Assembly (NCBI GenBank): GCA_043820105.1
Contig: JBDREC010000004.1
Span: 69,682 to 133,681, forward strand
Length of the DNA: 64,000 bases
Origin: Pseudomonadota bacterium
Lineage (GTDB): Bacteria; Bdellovibrionota_F; JAHFAK01; JBDREC01
Reading direction: 5' to 3'
The notes beneath the pieces were generated by a model. The model saw only the letters and a program-made list of their open reading frames with translations, made no database searches and had not been told where the DNA came from. The translations under genes were made by a program, and so were the position numbers. Positions 4,830 through 61,811 of the stretch are shown piece after piece. Position 1 is the first letter of the stretch. The number at the start of each line of letters is the position of its first letter.

Positions 4830-6008
4830 ATGTTAGTTAGAGAAAAAGTTAAACAAGCAAAAGAACTATTAAAGGAATTTAATATTGATTGCTGGATTAC
4901 CTTTGTGAGAGAAAGCAAGGTTTGCGGTGATCCTATGTGCGATTATGTGGTTGGTAAGGATATGACATGGCACTCAGCTTTCGTTATAACAAAAGCAGGA
5001 AAAACTTACGCTATTGTTGGAAAGTATGAGGCTAAGATTGTTGAGGAAACTCAAGCTTATGATAATGTTATTGGTTATGTTGAGGGTATTAAGAAAGATA
5101 TTCAAGATTTGATTAAGGAAATAAATCCCGGAACAATTGCATTAAACTACTCAGAAGGCTCTTATATTTGCGATGGTATTACCCACGGCATGTTTTTAAC
5201 AATGAAAAGCTATTTATCAGAAATTGGTTTTGAAGATCGTATAGTTTCTGCTGATAAGATAATCTCTGCTCTGCGAGGAAGAAAATCTGATTTTGAAATT
5301 GATAATATTAAAAAAGCTGTTGACCACACAGTTGAAATTTATGACGAACTTGCTTCTTATATGAAGAGCGGAATGACTGAAAATGATGTGCGCAACTTTA
5401 TATTAGAAAAAATAAGCGCCAAAAATTTACCAACTGCCTGGGATCAGGAAAGCTGCCCCGCTGTTTATTCAGGCCCAGATACAGCGGAGGCTCATTACAA
5501 GGCCACAGACAGAATCATTGAGCCTGGGCATGTTGTTAATATGGACTTTGGTGTTAAATACAATGACTATTGCTCTGATATTCAAAGAACTTATTATATT
5601 AGAAAAGAAGGCGAAGACAAAGCGCCAGAAGATGTACAAAAAGCCTTTGACCTTATCAGAAAAGTTGTTGATGATGCAAAAAACGCCATGAAGCCAGGTG
5701 TTAAGGGAATTGAAATAGACACACTTGTTAGGACTAAAATCGTTGAAGCTGGATATCCTGAATATCCTCATGGCCTTGGTCATCAAGTTGGAAGGTTTTC
5801 CCATGATGGAAATGCCTTGCTAGGTCCAGCCTGGGAAAAATATGCGCAGCAACCATTTTTGCCTTTAGAAGCTGGAATGGTTTTTACCATTGAACCAAGA
5901 GTAACAGTTGAGGGAAAAGGTGTTGTCACAATAGAAGAAATGGTGGTTGTCACAGAAGATGGATGTGAGTGGTTATCAAAACCACAGATAGAATTGTATC
6001 TTGTTTAA
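4830..6008 (+). CDS. Xaa-Pro aminopeptidase/dipeptidase, M24 family
   Basis: GGAGG RBS; DFG...YCSD, HGLGH, TIEP and IEE metal-site motifs. Confidence 0.92.
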   Translation: MLVREKVKQAKELLKEFNIDCWITFVRESKVCGDPMCDYVVGKDMTWHSAFVITKAGKTYAIVGKYEAKIVEETQAYDNVIGYVEGIKKDIQDLIKEINPGTIALNYSEGSYICDGITHGMFLTMKSYLSEIGFEDRIVSADKIISALRGRKSDFEIDNIKKAVDHTVEIYDELASYMKSGMTENDVRNFILEKISAKNLPTAWDQESCPAVYSGPDTAEAHYKATDRIIEPGHVVNMDFGVKYNDYCSDIQRTYYIRKEGEDKAPEDVQKAFDLIRKVVDDAKNAMKPGVKGIEIDTLVRTKIVEAGYPEYPHGLGHQVGRFSHDGNALLGPAWEKYAQQPFLPLEAGMVFTIEPRVTVEGKGVVTIEEMVVVTEDGCEWLSKPQIELYLV

Positions 6009-6038
6009 TTTTGAATTTTAGATTTTGAATTTTGAATT
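6007..6038 (+). repeat. Heptamer tandem array (AATTTTG) x4.5 starting in the peptidase stop codon
   Basis: aattttg aatttta gattttg aattttg aatt. Confidence 0.9.
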
Positions 6039-6085
6039 AAATATTAATTGACTATTAAATTACAGTTATTTTTATTTTCTACCAA

Positions 6086-9585: not shown

Positions 9586-9740
9586 TTGGGTTAGATTGTG
9601 TAAAAAATAATGATATTAGCAGCTTAGTGTTTATAATAAGATAATTTTATGTTAAACGTAAGAAATTATAACTATCTGATTTGTTTTTGGGACATTTTTG
9701 TCTTTCATTATGTATTGTCAACTGGTTATCTTGAATAATT

Positions 9741-9835
9741 GAGCACCAGAGCTCCAGATCGCCAGCCACCAGTTGAGTGGAGAACAAGAGTGCAAGGGAA
9801 CAAGGGAACAGGAGCGCAAGGGAACAAGAAAACAG
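9741..9835 (+). repeat. Compound short tandem repeats: CCAG-ending units, then 7 octamers (GGGAACAA-like)
   Basis: 9780-9835: gagaacaa gagtgcaa gggaacaa gggaacag gagcgcaa gggaacaa gaaaacag. Confidence 0.85.
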
Positions 9836-9983
9836 CACTTCTATTTAATCTATGAGCTTTAACTTGATCCTGAATTTAAATTCTTACCTTTTTTCTTTTG
9901 TCGCTTTCTTTTGACATTATTATTAAATATATATAAATACCTTAAACTTATTATTAATTATAAATATTATTTTGGAGACTTAA

Positions 9984-23638: not shown

Positions 23639-23647
23639 GTGGTAAGT
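23624..23647 (+). repeat. (AGTGGTA) x3.4 array that supplies the TolC C-terminus and stop
   Basis: agtggta agtggta agtggta agt, encoding SGKW*. Confidence 0.9.
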
Positions 23648-27912: not shown

Positions 27913-27946
27913 AAAATTCAAAATTCAAAAAATTCAAAATCAAAAT
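27913..27946 (-). repeat. AATTTTG-family array starting at the aroC stop codon
   Basis: Minus strand TAG attttg attttg aattttttg aattttg aatttt. Confidence 0.8.
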
Positions 27947-29352: not shown

Positions 29353-29387
29353 ACTTACGACTTACAGCTTATGACTTACCACTTATT
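29353..29387 (+). repeat. ACTTACC-family heptamer array
   Basis: acttacg acttaca gcttatg acttacc acttatt. Confidence 0.88.
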
Positions 29388-30638: not shown

Positions 30639-30666
30639 TATTCGGTATTCAGTATTCAGTATTTGG
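30637..30666 (+). repeat. (A/G)GTATTC array starting in a stop codon
   Basis: agtattc ggtattc agtattc agtattt gg. Confidence 0.9.
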
Positions 30667-30691
30667 ATATGGTATATACCATTAGAAACCA

Positions 30692-30774
30692 TTGAAAATT
30701 GAAAATTGATTGTTGATTATTGAAAATTAAAAACACTTGGAATAATCAATAATCAATAATTAATAATTAATATT
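30692..30774 (+). repeat. Two-arm inverted heptamer array (TTGAAAA/TTGATT(G/A) then AATAATC/T)
   Basis: 30705-30721 is complementary to 30741-30757 with one G:U. Confidence 0.85.
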
Positions 30775-36726: not shown

Positions 36727-36807
36727 CAGTTTAGTATTTATTATTCATTATTCGGTGTTCAGTTTTCAGTGTTTTCCAGAAACCATAACCCAGCAGCCAT
36801 AACCCTC
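36727..36807 (-). repeat. aroA-aroK spacer made almost entirely of heptamer units (GT-rich arm then AC-rich arm)
   Basis: Minus strand gagggtt atggctg ctgggtt atggttt ... aaacact gaaaact gaacacc gaataat gaataat aaatact. Confidence 0.7.
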
Positions 36808-45667: not shown

Positions 45668-45729
45668 TGGTTAATTGTTGGGGATTGGAATAATCAATAA
45701 TTAACAATTAACAATTAATAATTAATATT
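45661..45729 (+). repeat. Two-arm inverted heptamer array between batC and batD
   Basis: GTTAATTGTT (45670-79) is complementary to AACAATTAAC (45703-12); AAYAATY x5. Confidence 0.8.
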
Positions 45730-45739
45730 AAGATAGGCA

Positions 45740-47536
45740 ATGCTGAAGAATTTGAAAAATAAGATTATAGGGTTTATATTTGTTTTTTTTGTTATAAGCT
45801 ATTCTAGTGTCTTTTCTGTTTCTATCGATCTTACTGTTGATTCTTTGAAGGCTACTTTGTCGGATGAGGTTGGAATTAGTATTGCTGTTGATGGAGAGCG
45901 CGACGCCGGTGAACCTAATTTAAAGTTTCCTGAAGCTGCTTTTAAGTTATATTCTCATGGTACAAGCTCCCAGGTGCAAATTATAAATGGGAAAATGGAT
46001 TCAAAGACAATTTATAATTACTCTTTACTACCTCTAAAAGAAGGTGAATTTGTAATTGGGCCCGCTCATGCTGTGATCAAGGGGAAACAATATAAGAGCA
46101 GTACCTATAAGTTAAAAATCGTGAAAGATGTTTCGGGTATAGCTAGCGAAAATACAAAGGATGTTTTCGTTAACCAAGAAATAACTAGCCTCTCTCCTTT
46201 TGTAGGACAACAGCTTTTGTATACTATAAAATTTTATCGTGCAGTAAAGGTATATAATTCAGTAATAGAATCAAGTCCTGATTTTTCTTCATTTTTATCA
46301 TATGACTTGGAGTCACAAGCAGATTATTATGATTATGTGGATTCGAAAAAATATGTTGTTCATGAAATTAAGAAAATTTTATTTCCTTTGAAACAAGGAA
46401 AAATAAAATTAGATCCAGTAGTCATTCGTTGCGAAGTTCCTGTTGAGGAGAAGGGATCAGGGCGCAGATCCTTTGACTCTTTCTTTTCATCTTCCTTTGC
46501 TGAGACAAAGAAGAAGGTCCTAAAAAGCCAAGAATTGATTTTAGATGTAAAGGCACTTCCAGGTTTTGGAAGTTTAAGTAATGATTCTGCTATTGTTGGC
46601 GATTTTTCTTTGACAACAAGTATTGACAAAAACAACGTTAAAGCTTCTGATTCTTTGACAATTAAATATGTATTAAGTGGTCTGGGTAACCTTGAAAACG
46701 TTGATTTGCCACAGTTTTCTGAAATTGAAAATTTGAAATTTTATTATGATAAACCTGAAATAGAAAAAAAAATATCTGGTGATGATATTCACTTTACTAA
46801 AACATTTAAAATAGCATGTGTTCCCGTTATTCAGGGAGAATATGTTATCCCTTCTTTAGAAATACATGTCTTTAATCCAAATAAAAAAAAATATACTCTG
46901 TTAAAAACCAAAGAGCTTAAAATAAGTGTTTCGCCTTCTGATACCCCAAGTCCTAATCCGCCAATTCAAGAAAAAATACAAGCTTCCAAAAACAAGGTGA
47001 AAATATTAGGCAAAGATATTTTGAATATAAATTCCTCTATTCATGGGGCAAATAAGAATGAATTTTCTTTGTTTATTAAAATTATTCTTTTTTTGTTAAT
47101 ACTATTCCCACCCTTATTATTTTTAAGCATTTATTTTTCACAAAAGAAGAAAATGGATTTTGAGAAAAATTACTCAAAAATTAGAAAATCAAAAGCATTA
47201 AATAAAGCAAAAAAAATGATGCATGATATTGAGAAAAAGGTGATGAAAAATGAAAGGCAAAAAGGCTTTAAGCAACCTTATATTGAGCTTTTAAATATAA
47301 TTAGACTTTACATTGGTGATAAGTTTGATTTAAATGGGCTTGCTTTAACAAGTGAAGAAATAAAAATTAAATTGAAAAATGCAGAACTAGAAGATAGTAT
47401 TATTAGGCCTTTATTTGAAAAAATAAATGAATGTGAAATGAGCCAATATGCTTCTTTAGAAAAAGGTCCAAATGAGTTTGTAACATTTATTAAGGAAACG
47501 GAAGTTTTATTAACTAAGTTAGATAAAAGTTTATAA
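45740..47536 (+). CDS. batD: BatD (oxygen-tolerance domain) protein
   Basis: Signal peptide; SSQVQIING; repeated Ig-like domains; C-terminal TM helix. Confidence 0.88.
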   Translation: MLKNLKNKIIGFIFVFFVISYSSVFSVSIDLTVDSLKATLSDEVGISIAVDGERDAGEPNLKFPEAAFKLYSHGTSSQVQIINGKMDSKTIYNYSLLPLKEGEFVIGPAHAVIKGKQYKSSTYKLKIVKDVSGIASENTKDVFVNQEITSLSPFVGQQLLYTIKFYRAVKVYNSVIESSPDFSSFLSYDLESQADYYDYVDSKKYVVHEIKKILFPLKQGKIKLDPVVIRCEVPVEEKGSGRRSFDSFFSSSFAETKKKVLKSQELILDVKALPGFGSLSNDSAIVGDFSLTTSIDKNNVKASDSLTIKYVLSGLGNLENVDLPQFSEIENLKFYYDKPEIEKKISGDDIHFTKTFKIACVPVIQGEYVIPSLEIHVFNPNKKKYTLLKTKELKISVSPSDTPSPNPPIQEKIQASKNKVKILGKDILNINSSIHGANKNEFSLFIKIILFLLILFPPLLFLSIYFSQKKKMDFEKNYSKIRKSKALNKAKKMMHDIEKKVMKNERQKGFKQPYIELLNIIRLYIGDKFDLNGLALTSEEIKIKLKNAELEDSIIRPLFEKINECEMSQYASLEKGPNEFVTFIKETEVLLTKLDKSL

Positions 47537-47538
47537 CA

Positions 47539-48459
47539 ATGGCGAAAAATATAATTTTAAGCAATATTACAAAAAGATATGAAGATAGTGATGTCATTTC
47601 TGATATTAATATAGAAGTTGGTGAAGGAAGCATTTTTGGTTTTATTGGCCTTACAAGCTCTGGAAAATCCACTCTGGCTAAAATAATTGCAGGCCTTACT
47701 CGCCCCTCTTTTGGATCTGTCATGCTTTCAGATGATGAATTTTCTCCTTATATCACTAAAAACAGAAGGCGTGTTGCGTTTGTAGCCAGTCCCAATGGCT
47801 TGCCCGGGCAATTTAATATTAATAAATTAGGAAAATATTATAAGAGAATCTATCCCAAGTTTAATGAGAACCTTTTTTTGGGTCTGCTTAACACTTTTTC
47901 AATTTCTTCAAAAGCTAAAATCTCAAAAGTTGGTTTTTTTAACAGAAAAAAGCTCGCTATCATTTTAGCACTTGCACAAACACCTGAAATTATAGTTATG
48001 GATGAACCCTTTTCAAAGCTAAAAACAGCAGATTGTGATCTTTTAAAAAATGCTATTTTAGATTATAAAGAAAACAATCCATGTTCAATTGTAATTTTTA
48101 CAGCTAACCCCAAATATCATAAAGATTTAAGTGATACTATCGCTTTGCTCGAAAGAGGAAAAATAAGATGTTTAATAAATGTCAGTGCAATTCAAGGTGA
48201 TTATCAGAAGATTATTCTTAGTCCCCCAAAAGATTATGATCCTGATGATTTTAAATTAGAAGGTGTTTTAAGAGTTGATAAAGTTGAAGATAAAATATCT
48301 TTAATTATATTTAAAAACTATAATTTTATTATTGAAATGCTTGAGCTTAATGGACACCAAATAGAAAATGAAAAAAAACTTACCTTTTCTGAACTTATTT
48401 GGGCTCAAGCAAAGCTAGAAATAGAGAAAGAGAAAGGGAGTCTTTTTAATAATGAATAG
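47539..48459 (+). CDS. ABC-2-type ATP-binding protein with degenerate motifs
   Basis: Walker A GLTSSGKST; Walker B VMDEP; signature reads VGFFN; no H-loop His. Confidence 0.8.
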   Translation: MAKNIILSNITKRYEDSDVISDINIEVGEGSIFGFIGLTSSGKSTLAKIIAGLTRPSFGSVMLSDDEFSPYITKNRRRVAFVASPNGLPGQFNINKLGKYYKRIYPKFNENLFLGLLNTFSISSKAKISKVGFFNRKKLAIILALAQTPEIIVMDEPFSKLKTADCDLLKNAILDYKENNPCSIVIFTANPKYHKDLSDTIALLERGKIRCLINVSAIQGDYQKIILSPPKDYDPDDFKLEGVLRVDKVEDKISLIIFKNYNFIIEMLELNGHQIENEKKLTFSELIWAQAKLEIEKEKGSLFNNE

Positions 48460-49174
48460 TAAAATTGAAAGAACACATACTTTTCCTAAGTTTCTTGTTT
48501 CACTGGCTTTAATGATAGTTTCTTGCTTGTATGCCATCTTCCATTATAATGCCAAATATGAAACATTTTATAATTATGATTCTTCTTTGCATTTTTCTGG
48601 TTTTTTAAATGAAACTTATTTTTATTCTGAATGGATGCTAATAGTTGTTTTTATTGGTGCTTTGATGGGTCTATTATCTATCCAGAAACAACAATTAGAT
48701 GGGTCAATATTATTTATTTTGTCAAAACCAATAAGCAGGGCAAGAATACTTTTAGCAAGAGTTTTTGTTTCCTTTTACTTCTTGTTTCTTGTTTATCTAA
48801 TTACAGGCGCCTTTATTCTTGGTATTTCAAAGTATCTTGCTTATTCTTATCCTATTGAGGAACTCGCCTTGCAGCTTGCACGGCTTTTTTCAATTTCTGT
48901 GCTTTTCTGGTCTATCAGTATTTTTTTTGTATGTAATTTTAAAAGGGCATTATTATCTTTTTTAGCTAGTGCTTGCCTTGCTCTTATTTTATTTTTTCTT
49001 AATTTCTACTTTCCCGGCGAAACTTTGCTTACATACCTGCCTTTTCATCATTTAACAAATATAAAAACTGTTGTAACTGGAACATATCCTTTTTTTATAA
49101 TGCTACTTTGGTTTATAGCCTCTATTATTTTTATCTATTTTTCAGTGCTTGCTTTTTATAGAAAAGAATATTAA
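48452..49174 (+). CDS. ABC-2-type permease
   Basis: About 6 TM helices; G.I.FILSKPISR.RILL motif. Confidence 0.85.
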   Translation: MNSKIERTHTFPKFLVSLALMIVSCLYAIFHYNAKYETFYNYDSSLHFSGFLNETYFYSEWMLIVVFIGALMGLLSIQKQQLDGSILFILSKPISRARILLARVFVSFYFLFLVYLITGAFILGISKYLAYSYPIEELALQLARLFSISVLFWSISIFFVCNFKRALLSFLASACLALILFFLNFYFPGETLLTYLPFHHLTNIKTVVTGTYPFFIMLLWFIASIIFIYFSVLAFYRKEY

Positions 49175-51132
49175 TGGCTTTTTTACGTTTTGTGAGAATT
49201 AAAATAAATGTAATTTATTATGGTCTAATTAAAAATAGATTCTTCTTTTATATAAATCTTTTAATTTTATGTATTCTTTTCTTTTTAGCCATTTTTGTAT
49301 TAAGCCAACATGAAGAAAAAGACGCCTATAGTGTTATGAAATCTCAAATATCTGAGATTGGTTTAATTAGAGCAAATACTCATATTGAATTATTTAAAAA
49401 CCCCGTGTTTCAGATTTATACAACACTTGCAATTGTTCCCATAAGTTCTTCTTTAAATACACTATTATTTCTCACAAAAGATCTTAAAATCAATAAAGTT
49501 TTGTTGGATGGAGAAGACGCGAGATTTAAAACAGCTGAGGGTATAACTAAAATAGTTTTTATAAAAAACTTAGATCCAACTAAGGTAAACTCTATTAAAA
49601 TATATTACGAGCTACCTTATGAAAACATAAGACAAATGCTAACTCTTGATGGTTTGCTTTTTCCAACTGGTCAAACCCTCATACCTTTTATTAAGTCAAT
49701 AAATTATAAGAATAAACTTATTGTTTCTGTTCCAAATACCTATAAGGTCGTTTCTAATCTGGATCTTGTAAGTCTTGATGAATTTGAAGGTGAGGGTAAA
49801 TATGTTTTTAATACCAATAAGGAAGCCAGTGAAATATCCTTGCTTTCTTTTCCCTATAAGGAAATCAAATTTTTTAGGCAATTATTTCCCTTAACTTTTA
49901 ACGTTAATAATTTTAGTGATGAAGATATTCATAAGTGGAATATGATTATAATTAATGTTTTAGAATACTTTACTCGAAAATTTCAAAGTAATTTACTAAG
50001 GCATTTAACAGTTTATGAAATACCCAAATATGAAGCTTTTGATCTTGGTGCAGATGTGCTTTGTATAGGTCATGATAATATAGACCCTCTAAATGCAATT
50101 TCGATTTTTAATTTAGTTTCAGATATAACAAGGAAATTTATTGATAAATTTATTGATAAAAAAGACCAGTCCAATGTTTTGTTATCTGAAGTTCTATCTG
50201 GCTTGCTTGCAATCTACTATATCAAGGATCACTTTCCTGCAAATGAAATTAACAAGGTTTTTAATTACCTGAAAAATCTTTATTTTGCCCTTAAAAGTTA
50301 TGATTTATCATTTGATGAAGCCCTTATAAACACTCAAAACCATAATTTAGCCAGAACTAAAGGAACTATCTTTTTTTATATGCTTTCAAAGTCATATAGC
50401 AATGATTTTTGGAGGAAGTACTTTGATTTTTTGTCTGATAAACAATCAATTAACCTATCATCTTTTAAAAAGCTTTTTGATAAGGGTGATTCAGCTTATT
50501 TGGATATATTATTCTGGGAATGGTTAAATAAAAAATCTTGTCCCGAGTTTTCTATTGAATATAATGTTAAGCAGAGAAAAAATGAGAAGAGTTTAGTTTT
50601 TGGTAAACTTTCCCAAAAGGCACCTGCTTATAATTTGAATTTAATAATCTCCTTGGTTTCGACCCAAGAAAAAATTGACAAAGATTATAAATTAACAGGT
50701 GAAGAGCTTAGCTTTGATATAGAATTCAACGGCACATTAAAAGAAATAAGCCTTGATCCTGATAATTTAATTTTAAATGAAGCTGCAAAGATGATAGATC
50801 TTAATGTTTCAGAAAATGCAATAAAGGCCATATTAAAAATATTAGAAAAGGGATTTATTGAAAATATTGAAAATCAAATTAGTTCTTATCTTGGCGACAC
50901 TAGCATAAATAATATCATTAATAATTTTTTTAAAGCAAAAAACGAACAATTTAAATTTGGTAAATTTTTAGTTATACATAGAGAAAATAGTGCAAGCGCG
51001 AATTTAAAAACATTGCATGGTCTCATTCCCTATGGGGCTAAAAATAAGTTTTCTGGTCTTATTTTCATGAACTTTATTTACGACATAAATAAATGGAAAA
51101 TCGTTAATTTTTCAATTAAGAAGATTAATTAA
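49174..51132 (+). CDS. Membrane-anchored M1-aminopeptidase-like protein lacking HEXXH
   Basis: N-terminal TM; VP..YKVVSN; SDITRKF at the HEXXH position; LSEVL; KG..FFYML; WEWL; LDPDN.I. Confidence 0.6.
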   Translation: MAFLRFVRIKINVIYYGLIKNRFFFYINLLILCILFFLAIFVLSQHEEKDAYSVMKSQISEIGLIRANTHIELFKNPVFQIYTTLAIVPISSSLNTLLFLTKDLKINKVLLDGEDARFKTAEGITKIVFIKNLDPTKVNSIKIYYELPYENIRQMLTLDGLLFPTGQTLIPFIKSINYKNKLIVSVPNTYKVVSNLDLVSLDEFEGEGKYVFNTNKEASEISLLSFPYKEIKFFRQLFPLTFNVNNFSDEDIHKWNMIIINVLEYFTRKFQSNLLRHLTVYEIPKYEAFDLGADVLCIGHDNIDPLNAISIFNLVSDITRKFIDKFIDKKDQSNVLLSEVLSGLLAIYYIKDHFPANEINKVFNYLKNLYFALKSYDLSFDEALINTQNHNLARTKGTIFFYMLSKSYSNDFWRKYFDFLSDKQSINLSSFKKLFDKGDSAYLDILFWEWLNKKSCPEFSIEYNVKQRKNEKSLVFGKLSQKAPAYNLNLIISLVSTQEKIDKDYKLTGEELSFDIEFNGTLKEISLDPDNLILNEAAKMIDLNVSENAIKAILKILEKGFIENIENQISSYLGDTSINNIINNFFKAKNEQFKFGKFLVIHRENSASANLKTLHGLIPYGAKNKFSGLIFMNFIYDINKWKIVNFSIKKIN

Positions 51133-51301
51133 TAAAAAAGCATTTTTTTAAATTTAAGCAAAGACAAGAATTAAATATAGAGTACTTACCACTTATTAAA
51201 GATATTTCTTGAAATTTTATTATTATTGTATACAAAAATTGAAATTAAATATATGAATTTAATATAATTTCCCAAAATAATTCTTTGGAGGCTAAATATT
51301 T

Positions 51302-52195
51302 ATGAGAAAAATTCTTTTTACTATTATAATTATTTTTATTATTTTTACTTGTGCATGTGATTTTGGTTCAAAAAAAGATGCAAATTCTATTCAGGATGCC
51401 AAAGTGATTGCTTCTGTAAATAATAAGAAGATAAGTGTTGATGATTATAATAAGAAATTAAAGACTCAGAAAAACCTTAATCCAACTGATTATAATTCCC
51501 TTCAGGCAAAAAAAGAGCTTTTAGAGGAAATGATAGATTTTGAACTTTTATTCCAAGAAGCTATGAGGGAAGGTTTTGATGAAGATATACAGATAAAACA
51601 AACCATGATTAAAACGTTTCTGAAAGAAAAAACAAAAGAAATCACTATGCCAAGTGATGAAGATTTAAACACATATTATCAAAATAATATTGATAATTAC
51701 AAAGAAGTTAGAGCAAGCCATATTTTATGCAGAGTGGATCCTGCAAAATTTATGAATAAAGAAAAAGCAGAACAAGCTGAGCTTGTGAAAAAATTAGACC
51801 TTGAAAAAAAGATGAAATGTGAAAAGCTCTTAAAAAGAATAACTAAGGGTGAAGATTTTGCAAGTTTAGCCAAAGAAAATAGTGAAGATTCATCTGCCTC
51901 CCGTGGTGGTGATCTTGGATATTTTAATAAATCCAGAATGGTAAAGCCCTTTGCGGATGCTGCCTTTTTACTTGAAAAAGCAGGAGATGTAAGCCCCCTT
52001 GTGCAAACAAGCTTTGGTTATCATATCATTTTGCTAACAGACAAAAGGGTGCAGTCTTTTGATATGGTGAAAAAGCAAATAGCAGGTGATCTTGGAAGGA
52101 GAATTAAAGATAAATTCCTCAATGATTATGTTGAAGACTTATACAAAAACGCAGATGTGAAAATTTATAAAGAAAAGTTATCTAATATTAAATAA
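51302..52195 (+). CDS. PpiC/parvulin-type peptidyl-prolyl isomerase (likely lipoprotein)
   Basis: VRASHIL, GEDFASLAKENSED, GGDLGYF and FGYHII motifs. Confidence 0.93.
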   Translation: MRKILFTIIIIFIIFTCACDFGSKKDANSIQDAKVIASVNNKKISVDDYNKKLKTQKNLNPTDYNSLQAKKELLEEMIDFELLFQEAMREGFDEDIQIKQTMIKTFLKEKTKEITMPSDEDLNTYYQNNIDNYKEVRASHILCRVDPAKFMNKEKAEQAELVKKLDLEKKMKCEKLLKRITKGEDFASLAKENSEDSSASRGGDLGYFNKSRMVKPFADAAFLLEKAGDVSPLVQTSFGYHIILLTDKRVQSFDMVKKQIAGDLGRRIKDKFLNDYVEDLYKNADVKIYKEKLSNIK

Positions 52196-52219
52196 ATTGC
52201 TTAAGTAGGATGCTAAACA

Positions 52220-53089
52220 ATGAGAAAAGCTATTACTATTATATTTTATAATTCATTATTCTTAAATTTAATACTTTTAGTATTTGTTACTTGCGAAGGC
52301 AAATTAGCAAAAGATGCAATTGCTACTATTTCTTCAAAAGAAATTACCAGCGAATATTTAATGAAAAATTACAGCGATCTTTTATTAAACGAAGACAAAG
52401 AAGATAAAAATACGAATAAGCTACCAAATCTAAATATTAATCAATTTGAAGAGCTTTTGAAATTTGAACTTCTTTATAAAGAAGCCTTAAAATCAGGTAT
52501 TCAAAATCATGATGAGGTTAAAAGAGCCATTGTGCATAGTTATTTAAGAAAGCATTTTTCAATTGAGCAAGGCAGAGACCTTGAATCTTTAAAAAAATAT
52601 TACGAAGAACATAAAAATGAATATTATACGAGGTCTGCTCAGCATATTCTTATAGGCTTTGAAGACTCTAAACATGACATTTCAAAAGAAGAAAAGCTTA
52701 AGCTTGCCCAAAGCCTTTTAAAAAGAGTTTTATCAGGTGAAGATTTTGCAGCTTTAGCAAAAGAATACTCAGATGATGCAGGAACTGCTGAAAATAGGGG
52801 CGACCTTGGGAACTTTCCAGAAAATTATATGGTTAAAGAATTTAACGACGCTGTTTTCAATGCAAAAAAAACAGGTATCATTAATAAGGTTATTGAAAGC
52901 TCTTATGGTTATCATGTTATTTATTATTCTGGTGATGCCGGTGCCTGGGATGATGTTAAAAATGAACTTTTTTATCTTATTTCAAGAAAAGAAAAGTCAG
53001 GTGCCTACACTGAGCTATTAAAAAAATTAAAGGAAGGGTCTAAAATTGAAGCTGATTATAGATTTCTTGAAAATATCGATACTGAATAG
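52220..53089 (+). CDS. PpiC/parvulin-type peptidyl-prolyl isomerase
   Basis: SAQHIL, GEDFAALAKEYSDD, GDLG and YGYHVI motifs. Confidence 0.92.
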   Translation: MRKAITIIFYNSLFLNLILLVFVTCEGKLAKDAIATISSKEITSEYLMKNYSDLLLNEDKEDKNTNKLPNLNINQFEELLKFELLYKEALKSGIQNHDEVKRAIVHSYLRKHFSIEQGRDLESLKKYYEEHKNEYYTRSAQHILIGFEDSKHDISKEEKLKLAQSLLKRVLSGEDFAALAKEYSDDAGTAENRGDLGNFPENYMVKEFNDAVFNAKKTGIINKVIESSYGYHVIYYSGDAGAWDDVKNELFYLISRKEKSGAYTELLKKLKEGSKIEADYRFLENIDTE

Positions 53090-54038
53090 TTTTTTATTGT
53101 CTATTGCTTTTTCTCCTTTAGCTAAAGCTGAAACCAGTACTGCCAATTCCATTTACGCAATTGTAAACAGTCATTTGATTTCAAAAGTTGACGTTGATTC
53201 TGAACTTAATATTTTATTGAAAAAGGATTCATCGTTTATAGAAAAAGTAAATACAGATGAAGGCAAATCCAAATGGATTAAAACAATAATAAATAGAATA
53301 GCAGATGATTTAATTGTTTCTGATGAAGCAAAAAAGATTGGTCTTGATGCTTCTGATAAGGATATTGACTATACGATTAATAACATTATGAAAAGCAACA
53401 ATATTTCCAAAGATCAATTAGTTGTATTTTTAGGTCAAGAAGGCAAATCATATGAAAAATATCGACGAGAAATTAAACTGCAGGTTGAAAAATATAAGCT
53501 TACAAATAAAATAATAAGACCAAAAGTTTCAATTACAGATATTGATCTCGAAGATTATTACAAAAAGAACTATCTCAATGAAAATAAACGCCAGCTCGTT
53601 AAGTTTCAATCAATTTTCATTTCCAAAAAAGAAAGAGATGCTAGCGAGATAAAAAAAAGAATCGAAACCATTAAAAAAGCAGTTAAACAAAGTGATGTAA
53701 ATGATTTTGAAAAACTTGTTCTTAAGTTTAGTGATTCAGATAATGTTGCAAGTACAAAGGGAATATTAAAGGGTATAAAGCTTGATGAATTAGCCCCTTC
53801 CTTTAAGGACGCATTTCAAAAAATGAATATAGGAGAACTAAGTGGCTTAATAGAAGCAAAAAACGGGTATTATTTTGCAAAACTCTTAGATATTTATTCA
53901 GAAGCCACAGAACCATTTGAAGAAGTTAAAGAAACAATTAGTAATGTTTTGATGCAGGAGCGAATGGAAAAACGCTTTAATATGTGGTTACAAGAGGTTA
54001 GGGCTAAGTCACACATTGATATAAGATATGGAAGTTAA
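53046..54038 (+). CDS. surA: SurA-like periplasmic chaperone/PPIase (start uncertain)
   Basis: AIVNS.LIS; SurA-N helices; parvulin remnant; WLQEVRAKSHIDIR ending. Confidence 0.75.
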   Translation: MKLIIDFLKISILNSFLLSIAFSPLAKAETSTANSIYAIVNSHLISKVDVDSELNILLKKDSSFIEKVNTDEGKSKWIKTIINRIADDLIVSDEAKKIGLDASDKDIDYTINNIMKSNNISKDQLVVFLGQEGKSYEKYRREIKLQVEKYKLTNKIIRPKVSITDIDLEDYYKKNYLNENKRQLVKFQSIFISKKERDASEIKKRIETIKKAVKQSDVNDFEKLVLKFSDSDNVASTKGILKGIKLDELAPSFKDAFQKMNIGELSGLIEAKNGYYFAKLLDIYSEATEPFEEVKETISNVLMQERMEKRFNMWLQEVRAKSHIDIRYGS

Positions 54039-54122
54039 ATTCTTGATAAATTGTTCTTTACATACGATATTGTTTATTATTAAACATTAGTTTTTTAGAA
54101 TATTAAATTTTATTGTAGTTTT

Positions 54123-54803
54123 ATGATAGATAAAGACGATAATAAAAATATTAGTTCAAAGAATTTACTAAAACTTACTGAAGGGATTCGGCAAGATCTT
54201 GAGAGAAAACTGGATAATCAAGATATTTACATTCCAATAGATGTAAAACCCCAAAGCGAAACTTTAGGTCAAATTCGAAAAGAACTTATAAACTGTGAAA
54301 GGTGCAAGCTTTGCCACAATAGAAAGCATGTTGTTTTTGGTGTTGGATCAGAGACTGCTGACCTTGTTTTTGTTGGTGAGGGCCCAGGCCATGATGAGGA
54401 TATACAAGGACTTCCTTTTGTTGGTAAAGCAGGACAGCTTTTGACAAAAATTATTAATGCGATGAATTTTACGCTCAACGAAGTTTATATTACAAACATT
54501 GTAAAATGTAGACCCCCTCAAAACAGAAACCCACAACCTGATGAAATTGCCATGTGTGAACCATTTTTATTGAGGCAGCTTGAAGTGCTTAAACCCAAGG
54601 TAATTTGCACTCTTGGGAAATTTGCGGCTCAAACGCTTTTAAAATCAGAGTTTACAATTTCTCAGCTTAGAGGGAAATTTTATGATTATAATAGTATTAA
54701 ATTGATGCCAACATATCACCCTGCCTTTTTGCTTAGAAATCCAGGCATGAAAAGGCCGGTTTGGGAAGATGTTCAAAAAATCCAGAAAGAATTGGAGAGA
54801 TAA
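54123..54803 (+). CDS. udg: Family-4 uracil-DNA glycosylase (Fe-S)
   Basis: CERCKLC, GEGPG..ED..G.PFVG.AG, KCRPP.NR.P and YHPA motifs. Confidence 0.95.
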
Positions 54804-54804
54804 T

Positions 54805-55911
54805 ATGTTTAGTAAAAAAAAGAAGGATAAAAAAGAAAAAGATGATCTTCCAAAGATTACCTTTATTTCTTTGCTTTTAAAGTCCTTTTTCTTTGTGCTT
54901 TTAATAGGTGCTTTGGCTTTGGCAGTCTTGGGAATGCAGAAAGTAGCTGTAACTGAGGTTGGAGTTAAAATAAATAGGATTGAAATTCCTTATTTAATGG
55001 AGAGTGGAATTCAGCCAAAAGTTTATCATCCAGGCTATGTTTTTTCAATTCCCTTTATTCAAAAAGTTGATGTAATTGATGCAAAGATCAAGTCCTATGA
55101 TATGTCCAAGACTTTTTCAGGAAATAAATTAGATGGAGATAAAGCTCTGGAAATCAGAACTTTTGATGAAAGTACTGTGTTTGTTGATATTACTATTTTA
55201 TACCAAATAGACAGAAACAAAGCATATATTTTTTGGGGCAATGTTGCTAAAACTTCAGGCAGTGAGAGTTCTTACTACAGCGAAGTTATTAAAACATTAA
55301 ATAATGAAATCCGTGATCAAATGCTTTTTTCTTTAGGAGTACTGGGAAGAGACGACTTTTACTCTAAAAGTCAGGGCCGCGAAGACCTTGCTATGAAAGC
55401 AAAAGAAGTAATAAATAGGAAATTTGATAAAGACAATTTAGGAATTATAATTGTTGATATTTTTCTTCGGGATTTTTCTTATTCTGCAGATTATGAAGCA
55501 AAAATTCTAGATAAATCATTAACTGAGCAATTTGCCTTAGTAGAAAAATCAAAAGTAAAAGTTGAAGAAGTCCGAAAAGTATTAAATGCTGACATACTTT
55601 CAGCTGGAGAAGCACAAATTAGGATTATACAAGAAGAAGGTTTTGCAGCTGAAAGGCAAATCATGGCTGATGGTGATTTGTATTTAACTTCCAAAAAAGC
55701 AGAGGGTGATTTAGCTATAAAAATAGCAACTGCAGAAGGAAAGCTAGCTCTAGCGCAAGCTTTTAAAGGAGAGGGCGGAAATATCTCAGTTGCAATTGAG
55801 ATGGCAAAGAGATTAAAAGAACTTGATACAATCATTCTTCAATCTGGCGGAAAAGATGGTTTGAATCCACTTAATGTCGAAGATATGACCAAAATGTTTG
55901 GAGTAAAGTGA
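54805..55911 (+). CDS. SPFH/band-7 domain membrane protein (HflK/C-like)
   Basis: TM helix, EVGV, SPFH core, A/E-rich coiled coil; start moved to ATG 54805. Confidence 0.8.
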   Translation: MFSKKKKDKKEKDDLPKITFISLLLKSFFFVLLIGALALAVLGMQKVAVTEVGVKINRIEIPYLMESGIQPKVYHPGYVFSIPFIQKVDVIDAKIKSYDMSKTFSGNKLDGDKALEIRTFDESTVFVDITILYQIDRNKAYIFWGNVAKTSGSESSYYSEVIKTLNNEIRDQMLFSLGVLGRDDFYSKSQGREDLAMKAKEVINRKFDKDNLGIIIVDIFLRDFSYSADYEAKILDKSLTEQFALVEKSKVKVEEVRKVLNADILSAGEAQIRIIQEEGFAAERQIMADGDLYLTSKKAEGDLAIKIATAEGKLALAQAFKGEGGNISVAIEMAKRLKELDTIILQSGGKDGLNPLNVEDMTKMFGVK

Positions 55912-55982
55912 ATAAGTGGTAAGTGGTAAGTGGTAAGTGGTAAGTAATATTCTTACGATTTGCGATATATGACTTACGACTA
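55911..55982 (+). repeat. Two-arm inverted heptamer array (TAAGTGG) x4.7 / (CTTACGA) x4.4
   Basis: 55913-55945 and 55952-55982 pair as a long hairpin. Confidence 0.92.
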
Positions 55983-56006
55983 AGTTTATATAAAAAGGAT
56001 TTAAAT

Positions 56007-57146
56007 ATGCGTAAGTGTTTTTTATTGTTTATATTATTAACATCAACTTTTAGTCTTCTTGGTTGCTGGGATCAGATGGGGACAAATGAGGTTGGGGTTG
56101 TTACAAACAATCTGCCTGCTCCAATAAGATGGACAAAGCCATGGAAATTGGCCTATGGAGTTGCAAATGATACTATCAGCAGAGGGCAGTTTGTTATTTA
56201 TATTCCTGGCATTCAACAAATAGACAAATTTGATGTTTCAATTAAAACTATGGATATTGGTACTGAAATTAAAATTTCAGAAACTGACTCAATAAAGGGA
56301 ATGCGCCTTAAAACAAAAGAAGGTAACAATATATTTATTTCCGTTTCTGTTAGATATCAGCTTGTAAAAGAAAAGCTTCCAGAGATTATCAGGAATTTTG
56401 GTTATGATCATGATATTGAAAACAAGCTTATTTTCCCAACAGTAAGAAGTATTGTTAGGACTCAAATGGGTAAACTTACTACATCTCAATTTGCTATTCC
56501 AGATATGAGGAAAAAACACGCTGAAATTACAACCAGGCTTTTAAATGAAAGATTAAACTATCTTGGTGTTACTATACAAAAGGTTAATATTCCAAAACCC
56601 AAATACAATGCACGATATGAAGCAAAAATTAATGAAAAAGAATATAATAATCAAGAAGCTGAAAAAATACTTTCACAACAACAAGCAGCTAAGTTAGAAA
56701 TTGAAAGAAGAATAGTTGAAACTGAATCTACAAAGCAATCACGAATTGAAAAAGCTAAGGGTTATTTTGGATCTCAAAAAGCAAAGGCAGATTCAGTTCT
56801 TTATCAAAAACAAAAAGAAGCAGAAGGTATAAGAAAAACAATGTTAGCAGAAGCTGAAGGTTGGCGTCAAATTAACAATAATCTTAGAGGTTCGGGCGGA
56901 AAGAATCTTATAGCAAAAGAAATCGCCAATTCCTTGATTAATAAAAGAATTGTCTTAGTTCCGACTGGCTCAAGTCAAGACTTATCAATGACCAATATTA
57001 ATGATCTTTTGAAAAATTTAATGCTTAGAAAAGAATTTGCTGAGGTTCAAGAAAAGAAAGAAGAAAAAAAGACAGAAGAAAAAGCTAAACAAATAGAGGA
57101 AAAACAAGAAGAAGTTATTGTTGATGAAACTTATAAAAAAGACTAA
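56007..57146 (+). CDS. SPFH/band-7 domain protein, second subunit
   Basis: LLGC lipobox-like; EVGV; LKTKEG.NI; coiled coil. Confidence 0.8.
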   Translation: MRKCFLLFILLTSTFSLLGCWDQMGTNEVGVVTNNLPAPIRWTKPWKLAYGVANDTISRGQFVIYIPGIQQIDKFDVSIKTMDIGTEIKISETDSIKGMRLKTKEGNNIFISVSVRYQLVKEKLPEIIRNFGYDHDIENKLIFPTVRSIVRTQMGKLTTSQFAIPDMRKKHAEITTRLLNERLNYLGVTIQKVNIPKPKYNARYEAKINEKEYNNQEAEKILSQQQAAKLEIERRIVETESTKQSRIEKAKGYFGSQKAKADSVLYQKQKEAEGIRKTMLAEAEGWRQINNNLRGSGGKNLIAKEIANSLINKRIVLVPTGSSQDLSMTNINDLLKNLMLRKEFAEVQEKKEEKKTEEKAKQIEEKQEEVIVDETYKKD

Positions 57147-57155
57147 GCTTAAATT

Positions 57156-57677
57156 CTAGCAGCCACTTCCCTGTTCTTCATTTGGATTGCAAACCAATTC
57201 ACCATTTTTATATGCATCATATGTTAATTGATTTACTCGAATTTCCTGTGTGCATTCTGTAACTTCATCATCATCATTTAAATCATAATATACCATTGCA
57301 TTAATTCCCTTTGTTAAGTTAACTCCAGAAGCTTCTTCAGCAGAAATAGCACTAAAGATATCTTGATCAATTGCAAAACTAATTGCTTTAAAGTCAGGAT
57401 CATTGGCTATTGCCAGTTGAGATCCTTCAATTTTTTTGGCATTCAGTTTGCTTGGATCTTTTGGATCAACAGATAAGGGACCAGCTTCCTTAAATCTTAG
57501 GTTTGTTATGTAATAATCAATTTCACTTGTTGCAATCCCATTTATTAGGAGATGAATTTCGGATTTTTTTGATCTTGTTATGACTCCACTAACATGAGGA
57601 ATGGCAAAAGAAGAGATTATTCCAATAATAGCTACAACTACCATTAGTTCTGCTAATGTAAATCCCCTTCGCCCCAT
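57156..57677 (-). CDS. Type IV pilin
   Basis: GGAGG RBS; prepilin site RRG/FTLAELMVVVAIIGII; C-terminal cysteines. Confidence 0.92.
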   Translation of the reverse strand: MGRRGFTLAELMVVVAIIGIISSFAIPHVSGVITRSKKSEIHLLINGIATSEIDYYITNLRFKEAGPLSVDPKDPSKLNAKKIEGSQLAIANDPDFKAISFAIDQDIFSAISAEEASGVNLTKGINAMVYYDLNDDDEVTECTQEIRVNQLTYDAYKNGELVCNPNEEQGSGC

Positions 57678-58444: not shown

Positions 58445-58558
58445 TATGAATCCCCTCCAAAAGTATTTTGAATTTGAATATTATTTAGAGAGAATGCTTA
58501 AGTCAAACCTTTTTATTTATCCGATATTGCTAAAAGTTTTTGCTCTGTCATTTTTTCC

Positions 58559-58603
58559 CTAATCTTAATCAAAATCGTAATCCCAAATTCCTAATCTAAT
58601 TCC
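58559..58603 (+). repeat. Degenerate NNAATC hexamer array
   Basis: ctaatc ttaatc aaaatc gtaatc ... ctaatc. Confidence 0.6.
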
Positions 58604-58668
58604 AGTAAATTTTCCAGCTAAATATTTATCCTTGCAATGTAAATAATCTTTTGCTAAATGCCAAAACA

Positions 58669-58828
58669 CGCATTGATTCTAAAAGAACAATGACGGAAAT
58701 GGTATTCGGTATTCAGTATTCGGTATTCAGTATTTGGTACCTGGGTATGTTTATTAGATTTAACTTACCACTTGCCACTTACAGCTTACCACTTATTAAT
58801 GGACTTGATCTATAAAAGGACAGGTACC
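58669..58828 (+). ncRNA. pan-motif-like cis-regulatory RNA: two bulged-A hairpins
   Basis: CG-CATTG-A-TTCT-aaa-AGAA-CAATG-A-CG (58669-95) and GG-ACTTG-A-TCT-ataaaa-GGA-CAGGT-A-CC (58801-28), upstream of the pan operon. Confidence 0.7.
58701..58797 (+). repeat. Two-arm heptamer array, (G/A)GTATTC x6 then ACTTACC x5
   Basis: 58701-58742 and 58763-58797 read directly. Confidence 0.92.
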
Positions 58829-58835
58829 CGAGAAT

Positions 58836-59585: not shown

Positions 59586-60367
59586 ATGTTATAGATTTTC
59601 AAAAAAAGAAAGATAAAAAAGAAAAAATTTCAATGATCACATGCTATGATCATTTTACTGCCAAAATTATAGATGATTCAATGATAGATTCTGTCTTGGT
59701 TGGCGATTCTTGTGCTATGGTTGTCTATGGTTATCCTTCGACAATTAATGCAACAGTTGAAATGATGGAAAGACACATCGAAATTGTATCAAGAGGCGCC
59801 AAATCAAAATTTATAATAGGTGATATGCCATTTCTCTCTTTTAGAAAAGGAGTTGCTGAGGCAATGGAATGTGTGGAAAGTTTCATGAGGGCAGGAGCTC
59901 ACGCTGTAAAGCTTGAAGGTGTTACAGGCCATGAAGATGTTGTAGCTAATATTGTCCAATCTGGTGTTCCTGTAATGGGCCACTTAGGTCTGACTCCTCA
60001 ATCTGTTCACAAGTTTGGTGGTCATAAGGTTCAAGGCAAAGATCAAGAATCCATGGACAAAATTATTAAAGATGCAAAAATCTTAGAAGACCTTGGTTGT
60101 TTTTCTATTGTGCTTGAATGCATTCCAGAGAATCTAGCAAGTAAGATAACAGAAGCAATAAAAATACCGACAATTGGTATTGGAGCAGGTTTACACGTTG
60201 ATGGTCAAGTGCTTGTGCTTCAAGATATGCTTGGAATGGCTAAGGATTTCAACCCTAAATTTTTAAGAAAGTATCTTGATGGCCATAGTTTGATATCAAA
60301 TGCGATTAATAAGTTTCATCGAGATGTTAAGTGTTTGGAGTTTCCTGGGTGGGATGAATCGTATTAA
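59582..60367 (+). CDS. panB: Ketopantoate hydroxymethyltransferase
   Basis: LVGDS, DMPF, VKLEG, HLGLTPQS and TIGIGAG motifs. Confidence 0.97.
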   Translation: MNVIDFQKKKDKKEKISMITCYDHFTAKIIDDSMIDSVLVGDSCAMVVYGYPSTINATVEMMERHIEIVSRGAKSKFIIGDMPFLSFRKGVAEAMECVESFMRAGAHAVKLEGVTGHEDVVANIVQSGVPVMGHLGLTPQSVHKFGGHKVQGKDQESMDKIIKDAKILEDLGCFSIVLECIPENLASKITEAIKIPTIGIGAGLHVDGQVLVLQDMLGMAKDFNPKFLRKYLDGHSLISNAINKFHRDVKCLEFPGWDESY

Positions 60368-60389
60368 GTGGTAAGTGGTAAGTGGTAAG
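60365..60389 (+). repeat. (TAAGTGG) x3.6 array starting at the panB stop
   Basis: taagtgg taagtgg taagtgg taag. Confidence 0.9.
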
Positions 60390-60452
60390 AAATAGATACT
60401 TGTAAGATTGAATTTAATATTTACTATCGAGCATCTAGCATTATGGAGAATT

Positions 60453-61217
60453 ATGATAGAAATATTTAAAAAAATAGCCAAATGGCAGGTTTTTAGAAAT
60501 AGTGAAGCCTTTGCAGGGAAGACTCTTGGGTTTGTGCCTACAATGGGGGCTTTGCATGAGGGGCATTTATCCTTAATGCAGAAATCAATTGCTGAAAATG
60601 ATTTTACACTTGTTTCTTTGTTTGTTAATCCTACGCAATTTAATGATCCAAAGGATTTAGAAAAATATCCGCGTGACTTTGATGATGATTTTGAAAAGCT
60701 GAAAAATGCTGGGGTGGATTTTATTTTATTTCCTGAGTATAATGATATTTATGCTGACGGCTATAGATATGTTGTTTCTGAAAAAAAACTTGCTAATATG
60801 CTTTGTGGTGCTTCAAGGCCCGGTCATTTTGATGGAGTTTTAACTGTTGTTTTAAAGCTTTTACAAATTGCAGGGGCTCAAAAAGCATACTTTGGGGAAA
60901 AGGATTTTCAACAATATATGCTTGTTTCAGATATGGCTAAATCTTTTTTTATTAACACTGAAATAATAGGCTGCCCCATCATAAGAGCTGAAGATGGTCT
61001 TGCCCTTTCTTCACGCAATCTTTTACTTAATAAAGAAAACCGAAAAAAAGCAGGGATCTTTCCAAGGCTGCTTCATTCAGGGGAGTCAATTGAAGTAATT
61101 AAAGAAAAGCTTACTAAAGAAGGCTTTAAGCTTGATTATATTGAAGAGCACTTTGGAAGAATTTTTGGAGCTGTTTATTTACAAAAAGTGAGGTTAATTG
61201 ATAATGGCAAAAGGTAA
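60453..61217 (+). CDS. panC: Pantoate-beta-alanine ligase
   Basis: GGAG RBS; FVPTMGALHEGH, FVNPTQF, RPGHFDGV, FGEKD, LSSRN and RLIDN motifs. Confidence 0.97.
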   Translation: MIEIFKKIAKWQVFRNSEAFAGKTLGFVPTMGALHEGHLSLMQKSIAENDFTLVSLFVNPTQFNDPKDLEKYPRDFDDDFEKLKNAGVDFILFPEYNDIYADGYRYVVSEKKLANMLCGASRPGHFDGVLTVVLKLLQIAGAQKAYFGEKDFQQYMLVSDMAKSFFINTEIIGCPIIRAEDGLALSSRNLLLNKENRKKAGIFPRLLHSGESIEVIKEKLTKEGFKLDYIEEHFGRIFGAVYLQKVRLIDNGKR

Positions 61218-61749
61218 TATTATTTTTGCTTTAACAGGTTCAATCGCTTGTTATAAAGCTTGTTTCCTAATCTCAAAACTAGTCCAGTCAGGTTTTGTAG
61301 TGCAGACAATTGCTACAGATTCTGCTTTAAAATTTATTGGCAAGTCAACTCTTGAGGGGTTAACCTCCAGACCTGTTTATCTTGATATGTTTGATAAAAG
61401 TGGAAATATTGAGCATGTTAGCCTGCCCAAATGGGCTGATCTAGCTATCGTTTGTCCTGCAACAGCCAACAGTATAAATAAATTTTCCCATGGTATAGCA
61501 GATGATTTATTAACAAGTATATTTTTAGCATATGACTTAAAAAAACCTTTTTTAATTGCTCCAGCAATGAATCACAATATGTTTAATCATCCTGCAACAA
61601 AAGAAAGTTTTTTAAAACTAAAGAAATGGGGCGTGAAAGTTTTAGAAAGTGAATATGGCATGCAAGCATGCAAAGAAGAAGGGGACGGACGTTTGCTAGA
61701 TCCTATGAGAATTTATGAGGAAATTATTAATACCTTTGGCGGTATATAG
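61204..61749 (+). CDS. coaC: Phosphopantothenoylcysteine decarboxylase (stand-alone)
   Basis: TGSIACYK, PATAN, GIADDL, APAMN and ACKEEGDGRL motifs. Confidence 0.92.
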   Translation: MAKGNIIFALTGSIACYKACFLISKLVQSGFVVQTIATDSALKFIGKSTLEGLTSRPVYLDMFDKSGNIEHVSLPKWADLAIVCPATANSINKFSHGIADDLLTSIFLAYDLKKPFLIAPAMNHNMFNHPATKESFLKLKKWGVKVLESEYGMQACKEEGDGRLLDPMRIYEEIINTFGGI

Positions 61750-61811
61750 TATTCAGTATTTAGTATTCTGCCTATTCTTAACTGAATACAAAATACCGAA
61801 TACTGAATACC
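61741..61811 (+). repeat. Two-arm inverted heptamer hairpin (AGTATTC)/(GAATACT) between coaC and coaB
   Basis: 30-nt arms 61741-70 and 61782-811 with an 11-nt loop. Confidence 0.92.

Follow-up and report, generated by a model that had tools for sequence, protein, structure and literature searches.

Dispersed tandem arrays of 6–8-base units in a Bdellovibrionota_F genome and their link to intervening-sequence protein cassettes

The window analysed here, 64,000 nucleotides of contig JBDREC010000004.1 in assembly GCA_043820105.1 (G000:C4:69682-133681 in our numbering), is scattered with short tandem arrays of 6- to 8-base units whose families recur at distant loci. Its genome, G000, is a 3.8-Mb metagenome assembly with 32% G+C and 92.9% completeness. 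An initial annotation made from the sequence letters had described these arrays as a dispersed tandem-repeat system, and that observation is real and confirmed. The reading towards which we lean, with reservations, is that the arrays are stray arms or empty shells of cassettes carrying a gene for an intervening-sequence protein (IVP, or S23p; PF05635), likely copied to new sites with IVP help. To our knowledge, an excess of 7-base repeats has been known in bacteria for decades without a cause, and IVP/S23p proteins have solved structures and no function. The link described here points to a candidate protein behind these unexplained repeats and to its own arms as the substrate, and the hexamer and heptamer lineages that both occur in this genome would serve as an internal control for specificity.

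Arrays were detected with Tandem Repeats Finder (TRF), an autocorrelation detector, direct reading and a profile scan set at about 2 false hits per family. Of the 22 coordinates originally given for arrays, 21 hold at least three units by TRF, direct reading or the profile scan, while 51184 holds about two units only on direct reading. The suggested excess of period 7 extends to the whole genome, where TRF returned 678 rows against 0 in a Markov-3 shuffle, the null used for all TRF genome counts, with 108 against 5 for period 8 and 102 against 1 for period 6. The autocorrelation detector gave 716, 105 and 161 arrays at periods 7, 8 and 6, compared with 14, 6 and 23 after shuffling, and placed periods 5 and 10 near background (18 vs 12; 17 vs 11). 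Distant loci share their units: 838 of 901 clustered arrays belong to 18 families, the other 63 having been removed as low-complexity, coding or singleton clusters. Among them are the families with type arrays in the window at 55913 (P7.1), 45689 (P7.2), 58701 (P7.3), 37738 (P7.4), 37393 (P7.5), 36980 (P8.1) and 37959 (P6.1). Most of the 838 lie between genes (700) and 40 lie deep within genes. The profile scan raises the total to 1382 arrays. The window accounts for 33, including a few double calls or weak coding hits.

The arrays are modules with fixed ends, not random stutters. In the large families, runs of the unit core are most often 4–5 long and drop away sharply at 6, and median lengths are 31–39 bases, or 4.4–5.8 units, in the seven largest families of heptamers, octamers and hexamers. 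P7.2 starts at a fixed phase in 114 of 145 arrays and ends at one in 124 of 145, with length quartiles of 38–38 bases. Each copy is a mosaic of variant units, and the 80 modal copies comprise 64 distinct versions. Duplicates differ in unit number, a tail of long arrays exists, and several contigs end in long arrays.

Arrays also occur as inverted pairs, for which it had been proposed that the G/T-rich arm comes first in the direction of transcription. This does not hold as worded: an inverted pair is the same from either strand, so the order of its arms carries no transcription information, and polarity is instead fixed by family. In close pairs, the G/T-rich arm comes first in P7.1 (25/25), P7.2 (41/42), P7.3 (13/13) and P7.6 (7/7), the A/C-rich arm comes first in P8.1 (4/4), P8.3 (4/4) and P7.11 (3/3), and P7.4 and P7.5 are split one to one. 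The transcription effect resides in the solo arrays. Among solo P7.1 arrays, 33 of 40 in first-arm orientation lie within 12 nt of an upstream stop, compared with 2 of 37 in second-arm orientation, and the second-arm copies have a median distance of 17 nt upstream of the next start. Across all families, first-arm and second-arm copies number 274 and 98 at stops and 64 and 194 before starts. The period and this stop/start position bias thus stood up genome-wide, while a strand bias did not: measured against GC skew, no replication-strand bias is present (241/222 and 310/302). Some solo arrays retain decayed partner arms, found on the expected side in 15/111, 14/68 and 12/37 cases and on the other side in 0, 1 and 0. 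Paired arms fold well (z -4.4 to -7.4) and two unlike arms do not. Compound arrays of abutting families exist as described, but they are not enriched, since 161 of 1903 intergenic gaps contain two or more families where chance gives 145–170.

No IVP gene lies in the window; the genome as a whole has 16 matches to PF05635 (IVP/S23p, Avd-like), 11 above the cut-off and several broken. Three of these genes are bracketed by correctly polarised arms of a single family, on C88 (P7.3), C30 (P7.4) and C43 (P7.13), and the cassettes are flanked by protein or tRNA genes. They are also the only genes of fewer than 140 codons found within correctly polarised same-family arms 380–460 bases apart. Hexamer (P6.1) arrays stand 3′ of IVP genes on C39, C68, C81 and C83. 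On C30 the first arm and leader are directly repeated on both sides of the IVP gene, so that deletion between the copies would leave an empty two-arm element. For the same families, the genome contains full arm-IVP-arm cassettes side by side with two-arm elements that are empty and with solo arms. The solo arms keep the cassette geometry, with the first arm at the upstream stop and the second before the ribosome-binding site. Other cargo between arms consists mostly of ordinary housekeeping genes between neighbouring elements; GxxExxY/PDDEXK_3 cargo has 0 matches in the genome, and viral contigs yielded no relatives of the three IVP queries.

Further features of the IVP loci were noted. The cassettes at C24:37720-38250 and C43:9100-9750 directly adjoin putative tRNA genes, and at the C24 gene both decayed hexamer arms are upstream. 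IVP genes of the hexamer lineage form divergent head-to-head pairs around a short palindrome bearing both ribosome-binding sites, as at G000:C39:65716-66660 and in genome G020 (L105-L108, L117), which has many such pairs and almost no arrays. An element of about 255 bases with terminal inverted repeats and 8-base target duplications corresponds to an internal deletion of the C39 hexamer IVP locus. It occurs at G000:C90:46600-46860, C9:8030-8285, C34:57611-57863 and about 10 more loci, with copies or ends at several contig ends. Three longer, divergent IVP-like genes of 155–178 codons (G000:C77:11938, C36:4934, C1:645) lack arms and are possibly domesticated.

Other genomes were surveyed in 80 regions from 44 genomes; none of the regions contains an IVP gene, and the genomes come mostly from different families. 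Period-7/8 arrays numbered 46 in 432 kb from 12 genomes with at least three IVP genes (10.6 per 100 kb), 7 in 385 kb from 12 genomes with one or two (1.8 per 100 kb) and 1 in 702 kb from 20 genomes with none (0.14 per 100 kb). Uncorrected for phylogeny, array density correlates with IVP count at a Spearman coefficient of 0.58, compared with 0.00 for control periods. Dispersed arrays numbered 53, all away from IVP genes, and 24 of them match an arm unit of an IVP locus in their own genome with at most one mismatch, where the null gives a mean of 3.4 and a maximum of 11 in 301 draws. A four-helix-bundle gene was among the partners first suggested for the repeats, and both the rise in density with IVP count and the matches to own arms support that co-occurrence.

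The repeat period also follows the IVP lineage. Of 238 IVP loci, the 117 with a flanking array at score 11 were placed in a quick tree. One branch, supported at 95% SH-aLRT, separates 78 rows that include all 64 period-6 loci from 39 rows that include 0. This period-lineage rule is strong, not absolute. Unit sequences turn over freely, with 37 different hexamers and 48 heptamers at IVP loci. In 28 of 70 sampled loci the upstream flank complements the downstream one; the corresponding figure for mismatched loci is 0.

Arrays inside genes provide a further view of how units arrive. Five of the arrays first listed as dispersed repeats lie in frame within aroA (36808-38127, minus strand; EPSP synthase, 439 aa), which the initial annotation had overlooked; they represent four families and leave the frame intact. 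At the P6.1 hexamer array (37959-37988) and the P7.4 array at 37738-37770, the enzyme spans 45 and 28 residues where the median of 19 homologs is 46 and 29, with native residues overwritten and length unchanged. The P7.5 array (37393-37425) occupies 11 codons in a span of 37 residues against 31, a net gain of about 6, and a compound block (36958-37048) combining P8.1 (36980-37006), P7.4 (37017-37048) and a weaker third tract spans 68 residues against 44, a net gain of about 24. A comparison with solved structures gives the same picture, with two arrays overwriting, one doing so in part and one block inserting. Outside the window, arrays in hemE, hemC and thiD bring net gains of about 20, 20 and 8 residues. 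In-gene arrays cluster, with 13 genes having two or more compared with a null mean of 1.8 and maximum of 7 in 2000 draws. Such in-frame copies are a route by which unrelated enzymes gain the same short peptides, sometimes by replacement and not insertion. In hemC (G000:C76:4427-5422) and at C29:66750 and C104:32400, a different short palindromic repeat adjoins the arrays; the hemC copy is translated in frame next to a P7.5 array.

For the comparison of empty and filled sites, the closest relatives among 31 genomes belong to the same order, and paralogs and distant homologs were used instead. Nine kinase paralogs have two loops that range from empty to holding one, two or three families. Among 23 pilin paralogs with full upstream sequence, 14 have arrays, from seven families, and 9 have none. 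The varied families in these kinase loops and pilin leaders indicate that units were imported repeatedly into tolerant slots. The pilin set comprises 25 type IV pilin-like paralogs, at window 57156-57677 and 24 other loci, several with sigma-54-like promoter boxes upstream and with arrays filling their leaders. Together with the fixed ends and lengths and the link to a four-helix-bundle gene, the occurrence of different families in the same paralog slot bears out the earlier suggestion of a dedicated dispersal system.

What the IVP might contribute is suggested by its homologs. The C88 IVP protein matches pentameric 2gsc (XCC0516) with an E value of 7.5e-24 and is also homologous to 2rld, each structure having five chains. 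In a four-copy prediction the protein self-associates with a score of 0.54 against 0.00 for the best control, which shows likeness to a solved complex and not a pentamer as such; 21 of 30 solved pairs attained the mark, as did 0 of 23 single chains, the runs agreed in at least 85% of contacts, and pLDDT was at least 84. IVP is homologous to Avd of diversity-generating retroelements (PMC10053308), in which all five protomers contact a 31-nt RNA stem-loop and bases are flipped into crevices between protomers (10.1101/2023.10.23.563531). In Coxiella's intervening sequence (IVS), tandem heptamers lie upstream of the S23p gene and the terminal stem is 28 bp long (PMC4990558).

A mechanism can be proposed on this basis. 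A predicted five-subunit IVP ring would bind the arms as single-stranded nucleic acid, covering about five repeat units, and would thereby set the period and length of the arm. Five equal sites on such a ring would account for arms of about five units with fixed ends, and for a period that is specific to the lineage while the unit sequence varies freely. Host repair or replication enzymes might then write a patch of 30–40 bases, guided by microhomology, as an insertion or a replacement, and selection would clear the copies from most coding positions. Families lacking a cassette in G000 (P7.1, P7.2, P7.5, P7.6 and P8.1) may be relics of cassettes that were lost or are unassembled. The wider proposition, that IVP rings are the agent behind bacterial 6–8-base repeats, acting as lineage-specific rulers within a one-protein, Avd-related selfish element that needs neither reverse transcriptase nor transposase, is put forward only tentatively, and we think it rather doubtful in this general form.

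A number of observations weigh against deriving the arrays from IVP cassettes. We know of no catalytic activity of IVP, and the correlation fits IVP making arrays as well as IVP merely settling in them. The five cassette-less families named above, of which P7.1 and P7.2 account for 347 of the 838 arrays, have no IVP cassette in the 92.9%-complete assembly, and compared with 212 arms of other loci they give one-mismatch matches or none. Most solo arrays have no detectable partner arm, and P8.3, with 24 bases and 3 units, departs from the five-unit rule. In the other genomes, 29 of the 53 dispersed arrays match no own arm and two genomes supply 16 of the 24 matches; G020, despite 19 IVP matches, shows in 60 kb a single short hexamer array and 0 arrays of period 7 or 8; and G013 has 4 IVP matches and no arrays in 40 kb. 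Of the 238 IVP loci, 121 lack a flanking array at score 11. The link between period and clade amounts to about one contrast in the quick tree, and the hexamer loci had been retrieved as relatives of two query sequences. Periods other than 6 occur in 14 of the 78 rows on the hexamer side. A further set of 68 loci includes 35 with arrays that come nearest the non-hexamer side, and 3 of these have period 6.

Among other explanations, we consider host polymerase slippage, favouring 7-base units grown from local seeds, with IVP cassettes landing in arrays or sharing tolerant spacers, unlikely but the best placed. Mrazek et al. 2007 put slippage forward in print, according to the summary in PMC4679880, and it would account for the changes in unit number between duplicates, for the tail of long arrays and for the largest families having no cassette in this assembly. 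It does not readily explain fixed ends and a peaked length, the sharing of 18 families in place of locally derived units, or periods 6, 7 and 8 within one genome, with the period tracking the IVP lineage and not the host. IVP-free genomes are nearly free of arrays, and the absence of strand bias relative to GC skew also argues against it.

We rate as slightly less likely again that the arrays are selected RNA sites, at which IVP rings or another protein would bind mRNA at stops and ribosome-binding sites, tuning translation or RNase III processing, and which spread by ordinary recombination. The strict orientation at stops and starts and the strong folding of paired arms would fit such a role, as would cutting of the Coxiella IVS stem by RNase III (PMC4990558) and the translational role suggested for the heptamers of Beggiatoaceae (PMC4679880). 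Against this, paralogous slots are empty or filled by any of 7 families, copies overwrite enzyme surfaces, most arrays are unpartnered, and the transcribed strand shows no excess of G-U over A-C (53 vs 68 in 63 pairs). The REP-like mRNA element first envisaged (REP, repetitive extragenic palindromic) suits the paired minority only; these pairs fold well but lack the G-U excess, and arrays bracket no Y1 transposase.

Writing of the repeats by a reverse transcriptase that copies an RNA template and has IVP for an Avd-like partner, as in diversity-generating retroelements, is improbable. The homology between IVP and Avd (PMC10053308) and a length-neutral replacement that resembles retrohoming are in favour of this idea, and the single match to bAvd, at 31.2 bits, is weak and below the cut-off of 40. 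However, G000 has 0 RVT_1 matches (in an assembly 92.9% complete), as do 4 of 5 other IVP-rich genomes, including the array-rich G029, G059 and G038 (93–100% complete). Reverse transcriptase, also named at the outset as a possible co-occurring gene, is not supported as one, with RVT_1 present in 1 of those 5 genomes.

Marginally more improbable still are REP-like sites mobilised by a Y1 transposase similar to RAYT (REP-associated tyrosine transposase) or carried by conventional miniature transposons. The genome contains 13 Y1_Tnp matches, and about 10 aligned loci have a hexamer array within the element of about 255 bases, which comes with its 8-base target duplications. Yet 0 of 12 Y1 neighbourhoods are bracketed by arrays and 2 of 12 have one array nearby, while the 255-base element accounts for some copies of one hexamer family, P6.1, and for none of the arrays in the window. 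Assembly artefact or chance is scarcely credible: the source is a metagenome assembly with several contigs ending in long arrays, but 716 period-7 arrays stand against 14 in shuffled sequence, copies in conserved enzymes preserve the frame, and at the single checkable site a 264-base contig of X2, a set possibly related to the source sample, crosses the 44810 array with 0 differences.

The short tandemly repeated repetitive (STRR) sequences of cyanobacteria are heptamer tandem repeats, and the likeness to them drawn by the initial annotation is right as to class. They are also cited in PMC4692102. Heptameric long simple sequence repeats (SSR) and STRR share with the present arrays the excess of period 7, short and mostly intergenic arrays, a scattered taxonomic distribution and an unexplained origin (PMC4679880, PMC4692102); the accessible text of these papers names no associated gene and invokes polymerase slippage. 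The present system differs in its 18 coexisting families, its periods of 6, 7 and 8, its fixed ends and its IVP link.

The G-rich heptamers of Xanthomonas and Nostoc (Rehm et al. 2015, PMC4692102) resemble these arrays in a preference for about four units, in convergent inverted pairs, in the placing of one orientation, on the coding strand, near stops and of its opposite ahead of starts, and in the lack of leading/lagging bias. They were read as G-quadruplex motifs, which the A/T-rich families here cannot form; no consensus unit of the heptamer families contains a tract of three or more G, and the four G-tracts of a quadruplex are lacking. The G/T polarity of three families here is reversed, and the accessible part of that account describes neither in-frame overwriting nor an IVP link. 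The intergenic heptamers of Beggiatoaceae (MacGregor 2015, PMC4679880) likewise form oriented arrays of 2–6 units ending just 5′ of start codons, but they comprise one family and one arm, were proposed as regulator binding sites, and are discussed in the accessible text without mention of helix-bundle or intervening-sequence proteins.

The 23S IVS of Coxiella burnetii (PMC4990558) comes close in anatomy: its stem of about 28 bp carries a PF05635 gene in the loop, with variable-number tandem heptamers before the start codon. A PF05635/TIGR02436 gene within inverted arms is found here at C88, C30 and C43, and nowhere in the window. Unlike the Coxiella IVS, these cassettes are placed outside 23S rRNA and have protein or tRNA genes as neighbours, and hundreds of gene-less arms are dispersed. 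Avd, from the diversity-generating retroelements, forms a homologous pentameric barrel (10.1101/2023.10.23.563531, PMC10053308); the difference is the lack of an RVT_1 match in G000. In the literature searched, which left most subscription journals outside, no paper was found tying PF05635/TIGR02436 genes to genome-wide arrays.

REP/RAYT systems and Rickettsia palindromic elements comprise many non-autonomous short repeats near stops with few cognate genes, and some are translated in frame. The units here are instead tandem 6–8-mers and not palindromes: only arm pairs fold, most arrays are solo, some copies replace residues, and the associated protein is neither a nuclease nor a transposase. 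Already published, taken together, are the heptamer excess, the slippage proposal, arrays before starts, the four-unit preference, inverted pairs, the stop/start rule and the Coxiella IVS heptamers. The genome-level dose relation, the own-arm match, the link between period and lineage, the fixed ends and the lack of an RVT_1 match were tested directly here.

Within the window, paired elements appear in several states. An empty two-arm element of P7.2 (30691-30772; arms 30691-30733 and 30741-30772) folds with a hairpin z of -4.4, and one of P7.3 (61741-61811, plus strand), the family that brackets the C88 IVP gene, runs from a stop to a point ahead of the next start with z -7.0. At 55913-55981 (plus strand), a P7.1 first arm (55913-55945) directly follows a stop and retains a decayed partner (55952-55981; z -7.4). 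Two solo arms of unlike families, P7.3 at 58701-58739 and P7.1 at 58763-58795 (58701-58795, plus strand), do not pair (z -0.5).

Other arrays lie at gene ends. P7.4 arrays start at the stop of an M24 peptidase gene in a convergent gap (6007-6038) and fill the convergent gap between the stops of an RND transporter gene and chorismate synthase (27913-27946). On the plus strand, a first-arm P7.1 array overlaps the stop codon of an outer-membrane efflux gene (23624-23647), a first-arm P7.3 array begins at a stop codon (30633-30663), and the first unit of a P7.1 array provides the panB stop codon (60365-60389). Second-arm copies precede genes: P7.1 at 29353-29385 (plus strand) is upstream of the next gene, P7.2 at 45689-45731 (plus strand) is directly upstream of a start codon, and P7.3 at 36729-36773, in second-arm orientation for the minus strand, is directly upstream of the shikimate kinase start. 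A P7.5 array (44810-44842, plus strand) at the junction of a VWA and a TPR gene lies in frame in the 5′ end of the TPR gene. Two intergenic octamer arrays, P8.4 (9739-9768) and P8.1 (9780-9835), occupy 9739-9837, and a degenerate P6.1 hexamer array (58557-58596) lies in a divergent gap.

Scans of the window with Rfam and for tRNA genes gave no match. The contigs of the sequencing runs X1 and X2 cover 43700-57000 in short pieces only, the uncovered parts being uninformative. At window 55912-55956, contigs of other organisms in these metagenomes bear a P7.1 array with unrelated flanks, which indicates that the family is common to that community. A separate dispersed repeat of about 250 bases with inverted ends (63655-63910) has at least nine long copies on other contigs at 77–93% identity and looks like a miniature transposable element. 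Outside the system, coding period-15 repeats at 29772-29992 and 33181-33326 encode linkers rich in Pro, Glu, Asp and Val in two unannotated genes, and Asp-Gly hexamer repeats are frequent in secreted proteins elsewhere in the genome.

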